Source: Candidatus Poribacteria bacterium
GTDB taxonomy: Bacteria; Poribacteria; WGA-4E; WGA-3G
Length of the DNA: 64,000 nt
NCBI GenBank assembly: GCA_963665235.2
Contig: CAXXLX010000001.1
Location: forward strand, 2,624,001-2,688,000
Reading direction: 5' to 3'
Each line of letters opens with the position of its first letter. The stretch's first letter is position 1. The notes beneath the pieces were generated by a model. It searched no databases, had not been told where the DNA came from, and saw nothing but the letters and a program-made list of their open reading frames with translations. The position numbers were made by a program, and so were the translations under genes. Shown here in pieces: positions 16,903 through 64,000 of the stretch.

Positions 16903-18030
16903 TTAGAAGACGACGCTTCCTGTTGCTTCAAGAAGTTGTTCCCGATTTGGACCAAGTGACGGCCTGTATGTCAAATCCAATTTGAATATGTAGGCGTGTA
17001 CGCCGATGCCGTAAGTGAGATGGTCTGTGAAGCCTGGGAGGATAATCCCGGGCTCAATTTTGTAGCCTATCCGGAGGGAGAGTAGGTTGCCGAGCAGATA
17101 TTCCACGCCGAGGTTTTTCTGTAGATGTCGCCATTCAAAAGCGCGGATACCGACTCCCCTGTCGGAGAGAAGTTGTTCCCGCGTCAGTTTCTCCGCTTCC
17201 CCTCTTTCAGCGTTGAGCCGTTCCAAATCCGAGACAAGCACCTCTTCATCTTCTGCTAGCTTATCAATGTATGCGGTGATACCGCTAACGAGAAGAAGGT
17301 GGTTAAATCTATCTCGGTAAATGCTCGTTGACGTGCCGAGTCGAAGCAACCGCGGCAACGGATCCGCTTGATTTTCATCAATAAAGGAGATGCTGGGACC
17401 GACATTCTGTATCGCTGCACCGATAGTCGTCGGGGTTAGATGGAACGGCAACAAGTACTGCACACCAAGGTCTATGGCGTAGGAGCTTCCGCTTTCTCGG
17501 CCGAGGACCATGCGAATCATTTTACCATTAATTCCTGCTGACAGAGAGTCAGTAATTTTGTCCGCATAAGATAATGTTAATGCGAAGTTTGTGCCGAGGC
17601 TCTCTTCTCGGATTATCTCCGGGGAGTCCGCTGTTACAGCAATTGTGCCTTGGCCCTGGATTTGAAGTGTCGCGCCGATAGTTCCGGCAGTGCCGAGGGG
17701 CATCGCGCCAGAAAGGAAGGTATAATATAATCCCGCGCCTGCCTCACCAAAGAGTCCGCTATAATCTGCGTAGAACATTGACGCTTGCCAAGCCTTTTGA
17801 CCTGAACGGATTTTACTGTCAGGCATATCTGCTAAACCGCTTGGGTTCCAGAGCGATGCCGTTACGTCCCCAGACATGGCGGAGAAGGCATCCCCAAGGG
17901 CCCTTGCACGCGCCCCACCACCTAAACTCAAAATTTGTGCACCTGTACGCCCCGGCCCCGCCAAACCTGTGGCAGGTAAAAATGTAACTAGCCATAAAAG
18001 AAGTAAAGTGAAAAATCTAATCCTAATCAT
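16903..18030 (-). CDS. PorV/PorQ-family outer-membrane beta-barrel protein
   Basis: Signal peptide; GAQILSLGGGARARALGDAF...WNPSGLA; QNVGPSISF..QADPLP; C-terminal Phe. Confidence 0.8.
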   Translation of the reverse strand: MIRIRFFTLLLLWLVTFLPATGLAGPGRTGAQILSLGGGARARALGDAFSAMSGDVTASLWNPSGLADMPDSKIRSGQKAWQASMFYADYSGLFGEAGAGLYYTFLSGAMPLGTAGTIGATLQIQGQGTIAVTADSPEIIREESLGTNFALTLSYADKITDSLSAGINGKMIRMVLGRESGSSYAIDLGVQYLLPFHLTPTTIGAAIQNVGPSISFIDENQADPLPRLLRLGTSTSIYRDRFNHLLLVSGITAYIDKLAEDEEVLVSDLERLNAERGEAEKLTREQLLSDRGVGIRAFEWRHLQKNLGVEYLLGNLLSLRIGYKIEPGIILPGFTDHLTYGIGVHAYIFKLDLTYRPSLGPNREQLLEATGSVVF

Positions 18031-27490: not shown

Positions 27491-28094
27491 TAGTAACGCG
27501 AGCTTGATAGTGAATGTCCGTTTGTTCCAACCCGTATGTTGAAACAAGCGTTGTGATTGTGTGTAGTAGGGAAACCATTCATTGCCCGTCGGTCGAACTA
27601 TTTGTTTAAGCTTCATTATGCGTAAACTCTGAGGATGGTGAAATATGCAACATTTTTGCACACAAATATGCACAATCTGGAAGATTATGCTACTATGTGG
27701 CAACTTAGGTTAGTAACGCGAGCTTGATAGTGAATGTCCGTTTGTTCCAACCCGTATGTTGAAACAAGCGTTGTGATTGTGTGTAGTAGGGAAACCATTC
27801 ATTGCCCGTCGGTCGAACTATTTGTTTAAGCTTCATTATGCGTAAACTCTGAGGATGGTGAAATATGCAACATTTTTGCACACAAATATGCACAATCTGG
27901 AAGATTATGCTACTATGTGGCAACTTAGGTTAGTAACGCGAGCTTGATAGTGAATGTCCGTTTGTTCCAACCCGTATGTTGAAACAAGCGTTGTGATTGT
28001 GTGTAGTAGGGAAACCATTCATTGCCCGTCGGTCGAACTATTTGTTTAAGCTTCATTATGCGTAAACTCTGAGGATGGTGAAATATGCAACATT
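27435..28094. repeat. Perfect 220-bp tandem triplication
   Basis: Units start at 27435, 27655, 27875; each ends with GAGGATGG and ATGCAACATT. Confidence 0.95.
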
Positions 28095-29479
28095 ATAAAT
28101 TACAGGTGTATCTGACGTTGATTCTGGGGCTACTTTTTCTGAACACGTTAGTATTTGCCAAAACGATTCATGTCCCCGCAGCGCAGCCTACAATCCAAGC
28201 CGGTATTGACGCTGCAAAAGATGGCGACACGGTCTTAGTGGCAGATGGAATCTATAAAGGTGACGGAAATGTCAACATCGATTTTAGCGGAAAGCGGATT
28301 ACCGTTAAATCGCGCAATGGGGCAGAAGCAACACTCATCGACTGTGAGGAAAACCCAGATACCCGAGGCTTCATCTTTCAAAACCAAGAATCGAATGATT
28401 CGGTGTTGGATGGATTTACGATAAAAAATGGTATCCATACACTCGGAGCTGGAATTTACTGCAATGGGGCTTCACCGACAATTAAAAATTGTGTCGTTAC
28501 GAAAAACCGAGCCGGGAATCCAGCGAACTTCACAGGGAAAGGTGGCGGAATTTATTGCAAAAATTCTAGCGCGTTGATAGAAGAATGCACAATTACGCAC
28601 AACTTTGTAGGTTCAAAGTTCGGCGGTGGGGTTCATTTAACAGGAGAATGGAGTGGAGAACTCCCCACCCGAGCTAAACCGCGCCTAATCAATTGCACGA
28701 TTTCAGAAAATACGGGCAGCGGTATTTATAGTGAGGGACGGACCACTACCGTTATAAAAGGTTGCACGATTTCTAAAAACACGAGCCGAGGGGTAGTGTG
28801 TACCGGCAATTATTCGTGGGATAGTAATCTTATTATCAATTCCCGTATTGAGCAAAATGCAGATGGCGGTATTGAGGTCTCTCAAGAAACAGCTATAGAT
28901 ATTACTGAGTCTATTATCAGGCAAAATACAGCCGACTCAGGGGGCGGAATTTCCTGTAGTCGAACATCAACGCTTAACGTTTCTGAGTGTATCATCGCGG
29001 AAAATACAGCGACCAAATGGGGCGGCGGATTAGATATTGAATCTTGGTCAGGGAAAGCAACTATTACACATTCTACAATAACACGGAATACGGCTGGTAA
29101 GTGGGGCGGTGGAATCTTTTTCAGTTCTACGCCAGCATCTAATATCCACCTTACGTTGACCAATTCAATCGTTTGGGGAAATACATCCGAGGGCAGCTTC
29201 GATGAGGCTGCATTAGGCGGTAATAAGATAGTTATCAGAACTTGCGATATCGGAGGGGGACTTGAAGGCCTCAAGCGGGAGGCACATCCGGATGAGTTAA
29301 TTTATGAAGACAACATTGATGAAGACCCACGCTTCGTTAATGCGGACAGCGGCGACTATAGACTGAAACCTGGAAGTCCTGCTGCTGCAATGGGCCCACA
29401 ATCGTCACTTGGGGGTTTACTCAGTGTCGCTGCGGTTGGAAAACGTCTTGTAAAGTGGGCAGAACTGAAACGCAGATAG
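28085..29479 (+). CDS. Secreted right-handed parallel beta-helix protein
   Basis: Signal peptide; TIQAGIDAAKDGDTVLVADGIY; GGGI repeats; DPRFVN..GDYRLKPGSP; C-terminal W-K motif. Confidence 0.9.
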   Translation: MQHYKLQVYLTLILGLLFLNTLVFAKTIHVPAAQPTIQAGIDAAKDGDTVLVADGIYKGDGNVNIDFSGKRITVKSRNGAEATLIDCEENPDTRGFIFQNQESNDSVLDGFTIKNGIHTLGAGIYCNGASPTIKNCVVTKNRAGNPANFTGKGGGIYCKNSSALIEECTITHNFVGSKFGGGVHLTGEWSGELPTRAKPRLINCTISENTGSGIYSEGRTTTVIKGCTISKNTSRGVVCTGNYSWDSNLIINSRIEQNADGGIEVSQETAIDITESIIRQNTADSGGGISCSRTSTLNVSECIIAENTATKWGGGLDIESWSGKATITHSTITRNTAGKWGGGIFFSSTPASNIHLTLTNSIVWGNTSEGSFDEAALGGNKIVIRTCDIGGGLEGLKREAHPDELIYEDNIDEDPRFVNADSGDYRLKPGSPAAAMGPQSSLGGLLSVAAVGKRLVKWAELKRR

Positions 29480-29514
29480 CTCTGATACAGAAACTTTACA
29501 CACTCCTACGAACA

Positions 29515-30133
29515 GGGTGTGTAAAGTTTTTGTACAAGTTGTTCAGTATTAGTGGTTTAATCGCTAAACATAGCCAATGGTTTCCAACGCGCCAATACTA
29601 TTTTTTATGAAGAAAAATCAAACAGTTCGCAACTAATACCATTTCTAATTGAAAATGTCTCTTTATCGTAGCATAAACTTCCAGTTTGTGCGTGTATTTT
29701 GTAGCATAAACTTCCAGTTTGTGTCTTCCGTTCTCCGTTTCATTTCTAACAACCGGTAATGATAGAATCATTAATAAAAATGGTATAATATAACAGCACC
29801 CCAAAACATTTTTGGGAGGCAAGCGGTGCGTTTTGCAACTCACCGGATTGGACACCGATAGCGTTTGTGTCGAAAGTGTAACTTATGCACTGGAGCCGCA
29901 CAAAAAAATATGAGGCAGAATGGTCCGAAAAGTAGGCGGAACTGATACCCGAAAACCGGCGGTTGAAATGACACATTTTGTTTTTTTTGTGTTGCGAAAA
30001 AGATAGGGGTAAATCGCTTGAAAACATAGACGTGGTATGAGTTTGTGCGACTGCAGCACTGAGAAGTAAATGTTACACTTTGTGTCAAAAGTGTAACTTA
30101 TGCACCGGTTTTGTACAAAAACTTTACACACCC
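29515..30133. mobile_element. 619-bp non-autonomous element with perfect 21-bp TIRs
   Basis: GGGTGTGTAAAGTTTTTGTAC...GTACAAAAACTTTACACACCC; 9-bp duplication CTACGAACA. Confidence 0.85.
29637..29785. mobile_element. Nested MITE (TACCATTT ends, TAA duplication) with 2 REP units
   Basis: Short version of 16487..16902; empty site visible in the homologue at ~23820. Confidence 0.85.
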
Positions 30134-30204
30134 CTACGAACATAACGGTTTGCATATAATCGGATATAAGGGTATAATTAAAAGTGGAGAAAGGAGAAGA
30201 ACGC

Positions 30205-31680
30205 ATGGAAGAAGCAAATGACTTAATACGACAACGTAAAGAAAAATTAAAAGAAATTCGCGAGGCGGGTATTGAACCGTATCCGCATAAATACGCCCCG
30301 ACACATACGACATCAACGATTCATGAGGAGTTTGAAGAAAATGTTTCGGAAACGCCTGACGAGGCACATCGTGTCGTTATTGCGGGCAGAATTATGACGA
30401 AGCGTGACCACGGCAAAAGCAGCTTTGCACATTTGCAAGATGGCGAAGGACGCATCCAAATCTATGTGCGTCGAGACGACATCGGCGCGGAGGTCTACCG
30501 AGTTTATCGACGGTTTGATATCGGTGATATTATCGGTGTGAGCGGGGTTGTCTTCCGTACCCGTACAGGGGAACTCACTGTGCTTGCGGATGAGGTTCAA
30601 CTGCTCTGTAAGTCCATCCGGCCGCTTCCCGAAAAATGGCACGGTTTACAAGATAAACAGACCCGATATAGGCAGCGTTACGCGGATCTAATTATGAATC
30701 CTGAGGTGAAAGCGGTCTTTATCAAACGAACGCAAATTGTCAAAGCCATTCGGGACATGCTCGACGCGGATGGTTTTATTGAGGTTGAAACGCCAGTGCT
30801 TCAACCTATCTATGGTGGGGCGAGTGCGCGTCCCTTCACGACCTATCACAACACTTTGGATCAGCCGCTTTATCTGCGTATTGCCAATGAATTGTATCTC
30901 AAGCGATTGATAGTCGGTGGGTTCGACCGGGTTTACGAATTTTCGCGTGACTTTCGGAACGAAGGCATGGATCGTGATCACAATCCCGAGTTCACGATGC
31001 TTGAACTTTATCAGGCTTACGCAGACTATCGCCAGATAATGGAGCTCACGGAAACCCTCATCACGAAGACAGTGGAAGCTATCCATAAGACAACGAAAAT
31101 TAGTTATCAAGAAAAAGAGATTGATTTTACCCTGCCCTGGTGCAGACTTTCCATGGTTGAAGCGGTTCATGAGTACAGCGGTATTAATCCGGAGGCGTTG
31201 TCAGCCGATGAGCTTTACGCCGCGGCAGTTAGTGCGGACGTTTCATTGGCTGGCGATGAGTCTAAGGGTGAAATTATCGTGGAGCTTTTTGACGAATTCG
31301 TTGAGCCGAAATTAGTCCAACCGACCTTTATCTATGATTACCCGATAGAGGTATCCCCCTTCGCGAAGAAGAAACCGGAGGATCCGGAGTTTGTAGAACG
31401 TTTTGAATTTTTCATTTGCGGGATGGAAATCGGCAACGCCTTCAGCGAGCTCAATGACCCACTCGATCAGCGGCAACGTTTTCTCGAACAAGCAAGCAGT
31501 TTAGAAGCGGGAAATGAGGAAGCCTTCATGGTAGACGAAGATTATCTACGTGCGTTAGAATACGGCATGCCACCCACAGGCGGCCTCGGCATAGGGATTG
31601 ATAGGTTGACAATGCTGTTGACCGATCAGTATTCTATTCGCGATGTTATCCTATTTCCGCAGATGCGTCAGGAGAATTAA
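30205..31680 (+). CDS. lysS: Lysine--tRNA ligase (class II)
   Basis: RQRYADL, YLRIANELYLKRL, FRNEG, HNPEF, YGMPPTGGLGIGIDR. Confidence 0.97.
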   Translation: MEEANDLIRQRKEKLKEIREAGIEPYPHKYAPTHTTSTIHEEFEENVSETPDEAHRVVIAGRIMTKRDHGKSSFAHLQDGEGRIQIYVRRDDIGAEVYRVYRRFDIGDIIGVSGVVFRTRTGELTVLADEVQLLCKSIRPLPEKWHGLQDKQTRYRQRYADLIMNPEVKAVFIKRTQIVKAIRDMLDADGFIEVETPVLQPIYGGASARPFTTYHNTLDQPLYLRIANELYLKRLIVGGFDRVYEFSRDFRNEGMDRDHNPEFTMLELYQAYADYRQIMELTETLITKTVEAIHKTTKISYQEKEIDFTLPWCRLSMVEAVHEYSGINPEALSADELYAAAVSADVSLAGDESKGEIIVELFDEFVEPKLVQPTFIYDYPIEVSPFAKKKPEDPEFVERFEFFICGMEIGNAFSELNDPLDQRQRFLEQASSLEAGNEEAFMVDEDYLRALEYGMPPTGGLGIGIDRLTMLLTDQYSIRDVILFPQMRQEN

Positions 31681-43298: not shown

Positions 43299-44366
43299 CT
43301 ACTCACTGACAGGTTGCTTCAACGTTCCCCACGTTACTTTTTTTTTGCCTACGGGTGAGACCCATAGCAAATCATCGTCTATCCAATCTAATAGATTAGT
43401 CGTGCCTAAATGGTCTGTTAGCGGCGTAATCTTCTCTGTCCGAATACGATACTTATAGATTTTGGCAGGTGGAAACACAAAACCGCGCCATAGCGGTTTG
43501 TTCAAGGGAATGTCGACCTGAGCACCGAAAACGATGGATTTACCATCATCCATCCAGTCCATACCGGCTCCTCTCCAGTCCTCCGGTATTTGGAGTTCTC
43601 TGATGTTCTCACCGTTCAAATCACATATCATATACCGAAACGCCCTAAAAAAAGGAAAGTTCCCTTCATTCGGTATTAGCACGCGTTTATACTCTTCTTC
43701 TTGAAACAGTATCTGTTTACCGTCGGGGGACCAGCGCGGTCTCAATCTATGAATCGCGAATTCTTCTTGAATGGGTGCGGGAAGAAGGGGGCGCGGGTTC
43801 CGACCATCTGAACGCATAATCCAGATTGTGCTATTTTTGCTGAATCCTCTCGGTTTTGCGAATACAATATGCTTACCATCTGGCGACCAATTGCATTGGA
43901 TACCCCATTCATCCGATATTTTTCTCATCTTTCCTGTTTTTATATTTAACACGTAGATGCCGACTTCTAACGCGTCGTTTATCAGCATGCTCCTTTTAAA
44001 GACGATATATTTGCCATCCGGTGAAAATGAACCCCCATTGATAGAACCCATTTCATCGTCCTCTATTGGGAGCTGTCGAACGTTCGTGCCATCCGCATTC
44101 ATTAGAAATAGGCCAGCGACTCCCTGCTTGATGCGTCCCTTAAACAGTATCTGTTTACCGTCGGGGGACCAATAAAGGGGGAATGGTCTCGACACTTCGT
44201 TTTCTAAGATAAGTGTCTGGTTGCTGCCATCATCGTCCATAACGTAGATACCATAAACACCAACACCATCGCGTTGTGAGCCAAAAACGATTTTGGCATC
44301 TGCTACTGTTGATAGAAGCAGCAGTCCTATCAGACAAAGCAAACCGACAACTTTTCGTCCAAGCAT
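43299..44366 (-). CDS. Secreted TolB-like (PD40) beta-propeller protein
   Basis: Signal peptide; WSPDGK repeats; C-terminal W-K motif. Confidence 0.88.
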   Translation of the reverse strand: MLGRKVVGLLCLIGLLLLSTVADAKIVFGSQRDGVGVYGIYVMDDDGSNQTLILENEVSRPFPLYWSPDGKQILFKGRIKQGVAGLFLMNADGTNVRQLPIEDDEMGSINGGSFSPDGKYIVFKRSMLINDALEVGIYVLNIKTGKMRKISDEWGIQCNWSPDGKHIVFAKPRGFSKNSTIWIMRSDGRNPRPLLPAPIQEEFAIHRLRPRWSPDGKQILFQEEEYKRVLIPNEGNFPFFRAFRYMICDLNGENIRELQIPEDWRGAGMDWMDDGKSIVFGAQVDIPLNKPLWRGFVFPPAKIYKYRIRTEKITPLTDHLGTTNLLDWIDDDLLWVSPVGKKKVTWGTLKQPVSE

Positions 44367-44422: not shown

Positions 44423-45292
44423 TTACGGTTTTGGATTGTCTTCATCAGTAAACGTAATAATAAAAGGAACCGAATCCACGTGCCTGTCGTCCTGCCCCGT
44501 TTCGAGGTGGATGTGAGCATTCAAATAATACTCGTCATCCGGGCCGATCGGTCCTCCGACGAAATAATCTGTCATGGAATTGGAGTAGGCATAATAGGTC
44601 GAATCGTATTTCGGATCGCCAGTCCGAATTGTTTTGGAGGGGCCATTACTTATTCGTTTCCACCCAGTGGGTTTGGCCTGTTTGCCGTTTCCATCGTATT
44701 CCGTATGTCGGAACCAGGATTCGCATTGAATGCCTGTATTGGTTGGGTTACTTGCATGGACATACCCATCCATGATGATATTCGTGCCATCAAAGTAATG
44801 GCCTGTGAGTGCTACATAGCCGTAGACACCGGGATGTAGTATTATCCCGTTATTTCCGGTTACAGCGCTGGTAGATATAGGTTTATAGACCGTAAAATTG
44901 TAGGTTTCACTGTCTGCATGTAAAATAACCCGCCCTAGCGGGAAAGCGACTGCTTTTATCTTATACTTTTTGCCTTTTAGGTTGCCGGGTAAATTGGAAA
45001 AACTGAAATAATCTTCGGTTTTGGTACCATCCCCCTCACTTCTACCTTCAAGAACATTGTCAACATACCAGAGGATAAAAGCATATGGTTTATCTGTTCT
45101 GATATAGAAAGTGAAGTACGGATCGCCGTAATCGTATTCTGTGGTTGTTCCGTTGTAAGACCGCAGTTCTTCAATTTCGATCGGTTCCCCGATGGGACCC
45201 AATGCCCCGATGGCATCATTGATACCGACAAAACCTATTAGTAGGAATGCAGCGAATACTACTGCGATTGTAAAGGTCTTATATTTCAACAT
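44423..45292 (-). CDS. Hypothetical secreted beta-rich protein
   Basis: RBS AAGGAG; signal-peptide-like N-terminus; no family recognised. Confidence 0.75.
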   Translation of the reverse strand: MLKYKTFTIAVVFAAFLLIGFVGINDAIGALGPIGEPIEIEELRSYNGTTTEYDYGDPYFTFYIRTDKPYAFILWYVDNVLEGRSEGDGTKTEDYFSFSNLPGNLKGKKYKIKAVAFPLGRVILHADSETYNFTVYKPISTSAVTGNNGIILHPGVYGYVALTGHYFDGTNIIMDGYVHASNPTNTGIQCESWFRHTEYDGNGKQAKPTGWKRISNGPSKTIRTGDPKYDSTYYAYSNSMTDYFVGGPIGPDDEYYLNAHIHLETGQDDRHVDSVPFIITFTDEDNPKP

Positions 45293-45463
45293 TTTGCGCT
45301 CCTTTATATTTATCAAATTTTTTCTATTTGCCGTTTGTAACAAGTGAACTATTGTTAATCGGGAGCACCATAGGTTGGAGCACCCTGGCTACCAAATCAA
45401 TATGCTCTAAATAAACGTTGAGGAGAGATTCATCTTGAAAGTATTGTTTTGGTGGTTATTGGT

Positions 45464-63182: not shown

Positions 63183-64000
63183 TCAATCCACTTGCTTGAT
63201 ATGCCCCCATTGGATAGCGAGCTTGTCCAACGGGAACACACTTAGAAAACCCGGAGACCAATGCGGATGGTAGTCCCCCTTCGGATGTTTCGTTAGGTTT
63301 GTTAGCTTACGACTATCCAGTCTATACCGATAGATTTCATAATTCGCGCCCGGCGTGCTAAGGTCAGCTTTCATAGATAAAAGGACTGTCCGGTCGTCAC
63401 CCATCCAACACTGTGTAGCGATGAGTGCGTCGTTCCCGAAATGGTGTTCCTCACGATGTCCTGTAAATACGTTCTGAACGATGAGACGCACAGCAATGAT
63501 ACTCCAATCCCCATTCCCCTTCCGTTCTGTTTCGCGATACATGATATACGTGCCTGATGGAGACCAGCTGGGGCCCCCTAAAAAGAAGTTGTGAGGTTTT
63601 CGGGGGCTGAACCGTTCTTTCCTTGTGCCATCCGCTTTCATAATCCAAATGTTTTCGCCATTCTTCCCCTCGTATTCATAAGCAAGCTGATTGCCTGATG
63701 GAGAGTAGTCCAGCCGGTGAACCCATCCTTTCCCAATATTGTCTGTCAGTTGGCGCAGGTTTGTGCCATCTAAGTCCATCACATAGATATCCGCCTCGCC
63801 GGAACGATAACTCTTAAAGGCAATCTGTTTGCCATTTGGCGACACAACAGGGTGGCTATCTGTCGGATGGGTGTTCGGCACCTGGTCTGCCTCCGGAGCC
63901 CCTTTGACAGAGAGAATATAAAACTCGGAATCTTTGCCGATAGCTGCTCCTTTTGTTAGGTCTCGCACAAACAGGACCTGTTTACCATCCGGAAACCAGC
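63183..64000 (-). CDS. TolB-like (PD40) beta-propeller protein (partial, start beyond window)
   Basis: SPNGKQ / WSPSG repeats; C-terminal W-K motif. Confidence 0.85.
   Translation of the reverse strand, partial: WFPDGKQVLFVRDLTKGAAIGKDSEFYILSVKGAPEADQVPNTHPTDSHPVVSPNGKQIAFKSYRSGEADIYVMDLDGTNLRQLTDNIGKGWVHRLDYSPSGNQLAYEYEGKNGENIWIMKADGTRKERFSPRKPHNFFLGGPSWSPSGTYIMYRETERKGNGDWSIIAVRLIVQNVFTGHREEHHFGNDALIATQCWMGDDRTVLLSMKADLSTPGANYEIYRYRLDSRKLTNLTKHPKGDYHPHWSPGFLSVFPLDKLAIQWGHIKQVD

Follow-up and report, generated by a model that had tools for sequence, protein, structure and literature searches.

A conserved short C-terminal tail on exported proteins of diverse fold in Poribacteria, a candidate protein-sorting tag

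RESULTS

Three exported proteins of the window end in the same tail

The window analyzed here is a 64,000-nt stretch (C1:2624001-2688000) of the 4-contig, 5.31-Mb assembly GCA_963665235.2 from a Candidatus Poribacteria bacterium (contig CAXXLX010000001.1, here C1), and our subject is a short conserved tail at the C-termini of three predicted exported proteins encoded in it, a beta-helix protein and two beta-propellers. Coordinates without a contig prefix are those of the window.

28085..29479, + strand: gene for a Sec-exported right-handed beta-helix protein with tail; open reading frame (ORF) of 464 aa, N-terminal signal peptide, Pfam Beta_helix 76.5 bits
29426..29476, + strand: tail of the beta-helix protein, read from the sequence; core V448-K462 at 29426..29470, two-residue basic extension at 29471..29476, stop at 29477..29479
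43299..44366, - strand: gene for a Sec-exported PD40 beta-propeller (355 aa; TolB-like) with tail; PD40 56.5 bits
43317..43361, - strand: core (V336-K350) of this propeller's tail, with a five-residue extension at 43302..43316; 23.4 bits with the tail hidden Markov model (HMM), 5 aa before the stop
63183..64000, - strand: 3' part of a second PD40 propeller gene (TolB-like), its start outside the window; Pfam/NCBIfam scans, signal peptide found upstream in the genome
63195..63239, - strand: core of the second propeller's tail, with a three-residue extension; tail HMM 25.8 bits

The C-terminal ends are ...SVAAVGKRLVKWAELKRR for the beta-helix protein, ...WVSPVGKKKVTWGTLKQPVSE for the propeller at 43299..44366 and ...SVFPLDKLAIQWGHIKQVD for the propeller ending at 63183, exactly as written in an earlier note on this DNA. 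All three proteins open with a classical Sec signal peptide (M-(K/R)-hydrophobic-AxA), which that note had claimed for the two complete genes; the third gene's lies outside the window, and counted from it the protein has ~342 aa, in an open frame of 375 codons. No Pfam or NCBIfam model matches the last 20 residues of the three proteins. The general tail profile scores the beta-helix tail weakly (15 bits), and the family keeps a variant of its own, LSVxPVGKRLVxW[AG]ELKR[KR], in 119 of 120 homologs, the lone exception looking truncated. In an alignment of 68 homologs (~55% identity), W458 is invariant and V448, K453 and K462 are at least 90% conserved. In one metatranscriptome run (X1), contigs cover 28109-28254 and 28435-28811, both in the beta-helix gene, and none covers the tail region.

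The motif lies at the C-terminus throughout the genome

An alignment of 27 tails from different families gives the motif V-x-[PA]-x-x-K-x-x-x-x-W-[GA]-x-[LIVM]-K, with 1-10 residues between it and the stop, a whole tail of ~19 residues in which the V, the W and the last K are invariant and the first K is at least 90% conserved. The extension past the last K, most commonly three residues long (53/128), is Arg-rich (23%) and usually has R, K, Q or another polar residue at its end, with no hydrophobic segment.

We searched a six-frame set of 30330 ORFs, each of at least 60 aa. A first regular expression matched 98 times, in 91 cases no more than 12 residues from the stop, and a 19-column tail HMM built from regular-expression seeds gave 136 matches at a threshold of 9 bits, of which 128 end no more than 12 aa from the stop; the other eight lie 30-43 aa (six), 23 aa (one) and 96 aa (one) before it. 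A relaxed core pattern, K..[TVI].W[GA].[LIVM]K, searched in a non-overlapping gene set (4504 ORFs, 1.59 M residues), matched 115 times, with 110 matches within 12 residues of the stop, four at 30-43, one at 96 and none beyond, against ~3.8% expected near the stop from position alone (binomial p about 5e-149). Approximately 2.8% of the genome's ORFs (128 of about 4500) bear the tail. Seven ORFs of a PD40 subfamily (e.g., C1:1627247-1628434 + and C2:387757-388917 +) have the tail core 23-43 residues before the stop, and five of these seven share a ...[FL][LIV]P.YR... extension after it.

Unrelated exported proteins, mostly predicted glycan binders, carry the tail

Among tail genes encoding 200 aa or more, 120 of 122 have a signal peptide by a crude heuristic, compared with 996 of 3160 among the other gene-like ORFs (odds ratio 130 and p 2.5e-55 by Fisher test), and the tail ORFs without one are a few short fragments. 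Stripped of their tails, the bodies fall into 29 mutually unrelated BLAST clusters, the largest with 47, 23, 7 and 7 members. Among 24 cluster representatives, 11 had a Pfam match over the cut-off, 3 had one below the cut-off only and 10 had none; the families passing were Laminin_G_3, PD40, 3keto-disac_hyd, LTD, NPCBM, CBM_4_9, CBM9_1 (twice), F5_F8_type_C, Kelch and Ldl_recept_b, and with the window's Beta_helix included, 11 Pfam domain families carry the tail. The cargo consists mostly of small (median 280 aa), single-domain, lectin-like or propeller proteins, most of which are, judged by their sequences, predicted glycan binders. Another tail gene adjoins 54 of 126 tail genes. The earlier note had proposed a ~15-residue C-terminal signal on unrelated exported proteins and had expected HMM matches to be strictly C-terminal and enriched for signal peptides; the genome-wide counts agree with it on each of these points, the motif being portable, strictly C-terminal and ~15-19 residues long.

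The tail occurs in every sampled genome of the phylum

We surveyed the spread of the tail by profile in two phyla, assigning Poribacteria by record titles. Matches were found in 121 of 121 sampled genomes of the phylum, representing 20/20 genera and 8/8 families, with at most 70 of the 37-364 first-look candidates scored in each genome; in the second phylum, that of a Deltaproteobacteria-titled bin, the tail was found in 0 of 100 further sampled genomes. A degenerate DNA pattern of the commonest core, searched across one genome per species (~185,000 species), detected at least 128 loci. Among the 128 listed, 114 by our count are titled Poribacteria, 10 come from five "uncultured bacterium" metagenome-assembled genomes (MAGs), each with 114 to 150 or more tails, and 4 come from three MAGs with other titles (Synechococcus, Pseudomonadota, Deltaproteobacteria); a stop follows the core within 12 codons in 127 of these loci, most often after 3, and V-x-[PA]-x-x precedes it in 111. 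With the tail profile, the Synechococcus MAG had 0 matches, the Pseudomonadota bin 5 and the Deltaproteobacteria bin one remnant in a 28-codon frame, and the tail contigs in the latter two bins (L081/L082 and L158/L186) are most likely mis-binned poribacterial contigs. Among 1.84 billion representative proteins, 394 score E<=0.001 against the tail profile, and in 147 of the best 150 of these 394, no more than 12 aa separate the core from the end of the protein. Some of the titled tail-bearing MAGs come, by their titles, from deep water or other non-sponge settings, suggesting that the tag is probably not tied to life in a host.

Whether the motif had already been described was left open in the earlier note. 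The 27 tails gave no NCBIfam match at E<=10 and two single Pfam matches, both unrelated or spurious, so that no curated model of either library covers the tail, and in the literature on Poribacteria secretion, sorting signals, C-termini and LamG proteins we found no description of it. We present it as an undescribed candidate C-terminal protein-sorting tag, which membership tests place outside both the C-terminal domain (CTD) class of type IX secretion systems (T9SS) and the sortase-type tripartite classes.

Selection acts on the protein sequence of a predicted disordered end

Across 124 distinct DNA versions of the tail, codon position 1 holds 15.6 bits of information, position 2 19.1 bits and position 3 5.9 bits. 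Synonymous positions are thus free and positions 1 and 2 constrained, indicating selection on the protein rather than on a DNA repeat.

Two candidate origins were rejected. A translated DNA repeat is ruled out by the codon-position analysis, and a recent CTD loss or read-through by a scan of 450 nt past the end of each of the 128 tail genes, which gave 0 CTD-HMM matches; together, these results indicate that the tails are neither translated repeats nor fresh truncations.

An AlphaFold2 model of the beta-helix protein (68-sequence alignment; mean predicted local distance difference test [pLDDT] 89.9) has a confident beta-helix body, with pLDDT <50 at residues 441-458 and 462-464, in the tail region. 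In a model of a protein with both tail and CTD, the CTD is folded (pLDDT 90-97) and the tail before it scores <50; packing of the tail onto the CTD is not predicted in this model, whose alignment held only 12 sequences. Both models point to a flexible, predicted-disordered C-terminal appendage. Such strong conservation of a disordered end is what characterizes short linear motifs that another component reads.

These observations bear on the possibility that the tail is no sorting signal at all and is instead a translated repeat or terminator, a last structural strand, a remnant of a lost CTD or a degradation tag. Repeat DNA is indeed abundant beside some tail genes, as at 29.5-30.1 kb of the window, and a few tail ORFs are fragments without a signal peptide, but the freedom of synonymous positions against constrained positions 1 and 2, the occurrence on at least 11 Pfam folds with the tail modeled as disordered and outside the fold, the lack of CTD remnants downstream and the retention of four key residues across the whole phylum leave this explanation largely refuted already and very improbable. 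The tail is a genuine protein-level short linear motif, portable between folds and spread across the phylum.

The tail stands in a fixed register before type A CTDs

The genome has 62 matches over the cut-off to the T9SS type A CTD model TIGR04183, 91-residue domains opening ...NYPNPFNPETW. The 67 ORFs detected by our own CTD HMM have no member in common with the 128 tail ORFs, and CTD ORFs are large (median 872 aa vs 280 aa for tail ORFs). The three window proteins and the 24 cluster representatives match no CTD profile (TIGR04183 / PF18962).

In three CTD proteins of the genome, the tail core stands directly before the CTD, as K + 3 residues + [LV][FL]QN[YF]PNP, a spacing equal to the commonest extension length of stand-alone tails. 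To follow this junction across the phylum, we searched for the DNA pattern W-G-x-[LIV]-K + 3 aa + [LV][FLY][QP]NYPNP, finding it in 75 of 121 genomes, at 1-6 places each and nearly all with the same length; the reversed pattern, used as a control, had 0 matches in every one of the 121. Of 12 junction loci translated, most show the full motif, e.g., ...V-x-P-x-G-K-x4-W-G-x-[IV]-K-x3, then the CTD. The fused bodies differ, some being WD40-like and some subtilisin-like, and the 12 are orthologous to this genome's own proteins with tail and CTD. Because the fusion bodies are orthologous across genomes, the fused architecture is stable, which argues that tail and CTD are not redundant; kept as it is in the same families across the phylum, the fused form suggests that the two are probably not two versions of one signal. 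The T9SS relation that the earlier note had considered is therefore upheld in one respect, the fixed K + 3 register before type A CTDs, and not in another, as the tail itself fails the T9SS CTD membership tests. Large genes with a CTD (650-2400 aa) form two long tandem arrays, at C2:61000-130000 and C2:212000-233000, each array with its own conserved pre-CTD module (...SY.RGI..LE.L.RALTP... or ...FKVTPEH.ANAVL....).

The junction invites comparison with Bacteroidota, where PorU is reported to cut in a flexible linker just before the CTD, the new C-terminus being joined to surface glycan (PMC11969387, PMC4560394, PMC5562754). If cleavage of this type holds here, processed proteins with tail and CTD would end just like tail-only proteins, since removal of the CTD would leave a C-terminus like that encoded by the ~128 tail-only genes.

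The tail could alternatively be an ultra-minimal outer-membrane export signal in its own right, a one-strand "mini-CTD" read by a PorV-like shuttle and a SprA-like translocon. Small proteins could in this way use a T9SS-like pathway without a folded 90-residue CTD, and T9SS signals are reported to shrink in Prevotella intermedia from seven strands to a three-stranded sheet that is still modeled on PorV (PMC11969387). Tail ORFs are small, CTD ORFs large and the two sets disjoint, the PorV/PorQ family is expanded (8 paralogs scanned) and tail and CTD both end in [LIVM]-K. Nevertheless, we consider this explanation unlikely: the tail persists before full CTDs across the phylum, where a redundant second signal would be expected to decay, it resembles none of the CTD motifs B, D and E in sequence or by HMM, it is predicted to be disordered, and PorV-like genes are unlinked to tail genes.

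Components resembling the T9SS are present in the phylum

The earlier note had suggested a possible role for a nearby PorV-like gene of the window, and we examined this gene and the other T9SS-like components of the genome.

16903..18030, - strand: PorV/PorQ-family outer-membrane barrel gene (375 aa), candidate T9SS-like component; NF033709 183 bits (cut-off 90)
C1:378637-383706, C1:444850-450333 and C1:2707432-2712627: PorU-like C25 peptidase / SprA-like giant barrel loci; sub-cut-off profile matches

The gene is a true member of the PorV/PorQ family, covering model positions 2-307 of 326 of NF033709 and scoring 28.5 against Pfam PorV (cut-off 27). Against the equivalog model T9SS_OM_PorV (NF033710) it scores 91.8 bits, below the cut-off of 250, over positions 23-345 of 367, and it is the only one of the 8 paralogs scanned that matches this model full length; its homologs are 74-93% identical. 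The family has seven matches over the cut-off in the genome, one of them only after same-frame neighboring matches are added. Its distance from the beta-helix gene is 10.1 kb; for a random 1-kb segment, the median distance to the nearest tail gene is 18.7 kb. Its Pfam-matched neighbors (a DHDPS-like protein, NFACT, TruD and a WD40 protein) include no T9SS component, the others being unmatched. With neighbors of this kind and no linkage between PorV-like genes and tail genes, a special role for the gene from its proximity is not supported.

Profiling against PorV, SprA and PorU, as had been suggested, gave a mixed outcome. PorV-like genes are phylum-wide, a SprA-like ORF of 2100-2300 aa, matching in collinear segments, is present in 41 of 41 sampled genomes, and so are PorU-like C25 peptidases, although all SprA-like and PorU-like matches fall below the curated cut-offs. 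Two PorU-like classes of ~2100 aa are phylum-wide, and a third of ~1750 aa is restricted to this genome's family. Searches for GldL and GldM gave no match, but the controls were also silent. The SprA-like gene is 58 kb from tail genes, with nothing recognizable in its neighborhood on reading ORF ends; two of three PorU-like genes lie within 3 kb of a tail gene, too few to weigh. The genome has one secretin gene. A 2014 single-cell genomics study reported TIGR04183 CTDs on poribacterial proteins and no Por structural genes (PMC3909097). By sequence similarity, with SprA-like and PorU-like matches below the cut-offs, T9SS-like parts appear to exist in Poribacteria despite that report.

Neighborhoods of tail genes

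To search for a partner, we clustered and annotated the 538 genes within three genes of a tail gene and tested them for enrichment, finding neither a dedicated sorting-enzyme gene nor a repeated receptor domain beside tail genes. Several neighbors are of note in themselves. The gene at 44423..45343 (-), immediately upstream of the PD40 tail gene at 43299..44366, encodes a signal-peptide protein of ~300 aa without Pfam match; it belongs to a family of 14 in this genome, 9 of which adjoin PD40 tail genes (p about 7e-6), and the pair looks like a conserved two-gene unit. Genes with FG-GAP and UnbV_ASPIC lie within three genes of a tail gene in 6 of 10 cases (1.2 expected, p about 4.5e-4; e.g., C1:3660414-3662090). 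The intergenic stretch 29500..30130, between the beta-helix gene and a lysS-like gene at 30184, is by BLAST built of dispersed repeats, the core at 29660..29740 having ~820 genomic matches and its flanks 40-230. Translated, the repeat gives ...HKLEVYAT... pseudo-ORFs, clustered beside other tail genes too; Tandem Repeats Finder detected no array in 29400-30300.

Cargo and neighborhoods raise a further explanation, that the tail is a docking or retention peptide apart from the T9SS, binding lipopolysaccharide, peptidoglycan, a periplasmic receptor or a scaffold in a dockerin-cohesin manner, with tail proteins staying periplasmic or being released in a different way, for instance through the single secretin. 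Basic and aromatic residues mark the motif (invariant K, W, K; extension 23% Arg), the cargo consists nearly entirely of lectin-like or CBM-like (carbohydrate-binding module) proteins in carbohydrate-utilization neighborhoods, a secretin gene is present and no T9SS gene is linked to tail genes, save the two of three PorU-like genes within 3 kb. What makes this explanation doubtful is chiefly the exact CTD register in 75 of 121 genomes with zero control matches, which is hard to explain without a link to CTD processing, and also the lack of a repeated receptor domain or an enriched universal neighbor.

DISCUSSION

Our results identify a C-terminal linear motif that every sampled genome of the phylum carries, and we put at roughly 0.5 the probability that it serves as a sorting or tethering handle, one that is linked to the T9SS-like system of the phylum and acts only in the vicinity of a free C-terminus, as the 1-10 residues after every stand-alone motif suggest. 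In such a scheme, the CTD would serve for export and the tail would act later, as a handle: once a PorU-type peptidase had removed the CTD, by analogy with Bacteroidota, an envelope component would bind the exposed tail, probably by beta-strand pairing, or process it, thereby holding the protein at the outer membrane or cell surface. Candidate readers would be one PorV/PorQ-like barrel or one of the two phylum-wide PorU-like peptidases. We infer cleavage at the motif boundary, tethering rather than export and the candidate readers.

Several results weigh against such a handle. Cleavage of the CTD in Poribacteria is assumed from Bacteroidota, and tail-only proteins have no known route across the outer membrane. 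Approximately 59 of the genome's 62 CTD proteins lack the motif before the CTD, indicating that it is not a general cleavage or recognition site of the T9SS-like system. The 12 fusion bodies, compared with the genome's proteins, match no tail-only protein and therefore give no direct sign that the two forms share a destination. The SprA-like and PorU-like matches all score below curated cut-offs, and PorV-like genes are not linked to tail genes: of their 15 matches in the genome, only 2 have a tail gene within 3 kb, compared with 14.5% expected by chance. Among the 538 neighboring genes there was no universal partner, only family-specific neighbors being enriched. Tetratricopeptide repeat proteins, natural readers of C-terminal peptides, were not enriched near tail genes either (13 observed, 10.6 expected), and neither neighborhood nor linkage singled out a candidate reader.

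A bolder version of the sorting handle would make the tail a new class of signal, for secretion or for attachment, in a T9SS-like system outside Bacteroidota: a single-strand motif would have as its reader a dedicated PorV-like barrel or a phylum-wide PorU-like peptidase, more than 100 small lectin-like proteins per genome would be exported and/or covalently tethered without a folded CTD, and the combination of tail and CTD would be the ancestral or a two-step form. We regard this as unlikely.

The tag is present in every sampled genome of a dominant sponge-symbiont phylum, and the predicted glycan binders that bear it probably meet host or environmental polysaccharides. Its destination would say how uncultivated Poribacteria build their surface, and would extend knowledge of T9SS-like systems outside Bacteroidota. 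For annotators, the tail offers a simple new signal model, and if it does tether proteins, it would be a very compact surface-display tag.

Among known C-terminal signals, the outer-membrane beta-signal is a terminal aromatic residue, usually F, at the last position of a beta-barrel protein, whereas tail extensions end in R, K, Q or polar residues and the bodies have soluble lectin, propeller and beta-helix folds. Dockerins are folded calcium-binding domains of ~70 residues. Like the tail, the dockerin of a dockerin-cohesin pair is a C-terminal add-on through which many proteins that bind or act on carbohydrates could be brought together on one partner, but no repeated cohesin-like receptor domain was identified here. 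In the sortase-type signals (LPXTG, PEP-CTERM/exosortase, GlyGly-CTERM/rhombosortase), a hydrophobic transmembrane segment and a basic cluster come after the motif. They resemble the tail as short C-terminal motifs on many unrelated exported proteins, lineage-specific and often present in tens to hundreds per genome; the tail differs from these tripartite signals in that only 1-10 polar or basic residues follow the motif, with no match to an NCBIfam signal model.

The T9SS type A CTD (TIGR04183 / PF18962; FlgD_ig-like) shares with the tail its C-terminal position on Sec-exported proteins of unrelated fold in the same genomes and the final [LIVM]-K, and the two adjoin each other in a minority of proteins. 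The CTD is, however, a folded beta-sandwich of ~85-91 residues (pLDDT 90-97), compared with ~19 disordered residues that match no CTD HMM; the terminal K or R is the very last residue of T9SS CTDs, whereas 1-10 more residues follow the tail motif, and apart from the fusions the two protein sets are disjoint. The short CTDs described for Prevotella intermedia keep motifs B, D and E and are approximately three times the tail's length, the cleavage motif PT/GI is unrelated to the tail and, in the available part of that paper, no protein has the linker motif alone (PMC11969387). Like the tail, these CTDs are short, a much-reduced T9SS signal, and a short conserved linker motif is reported N-terminal of the CTD there too, where PorU cuts and the new C-terminus is modified (PMC11969387).

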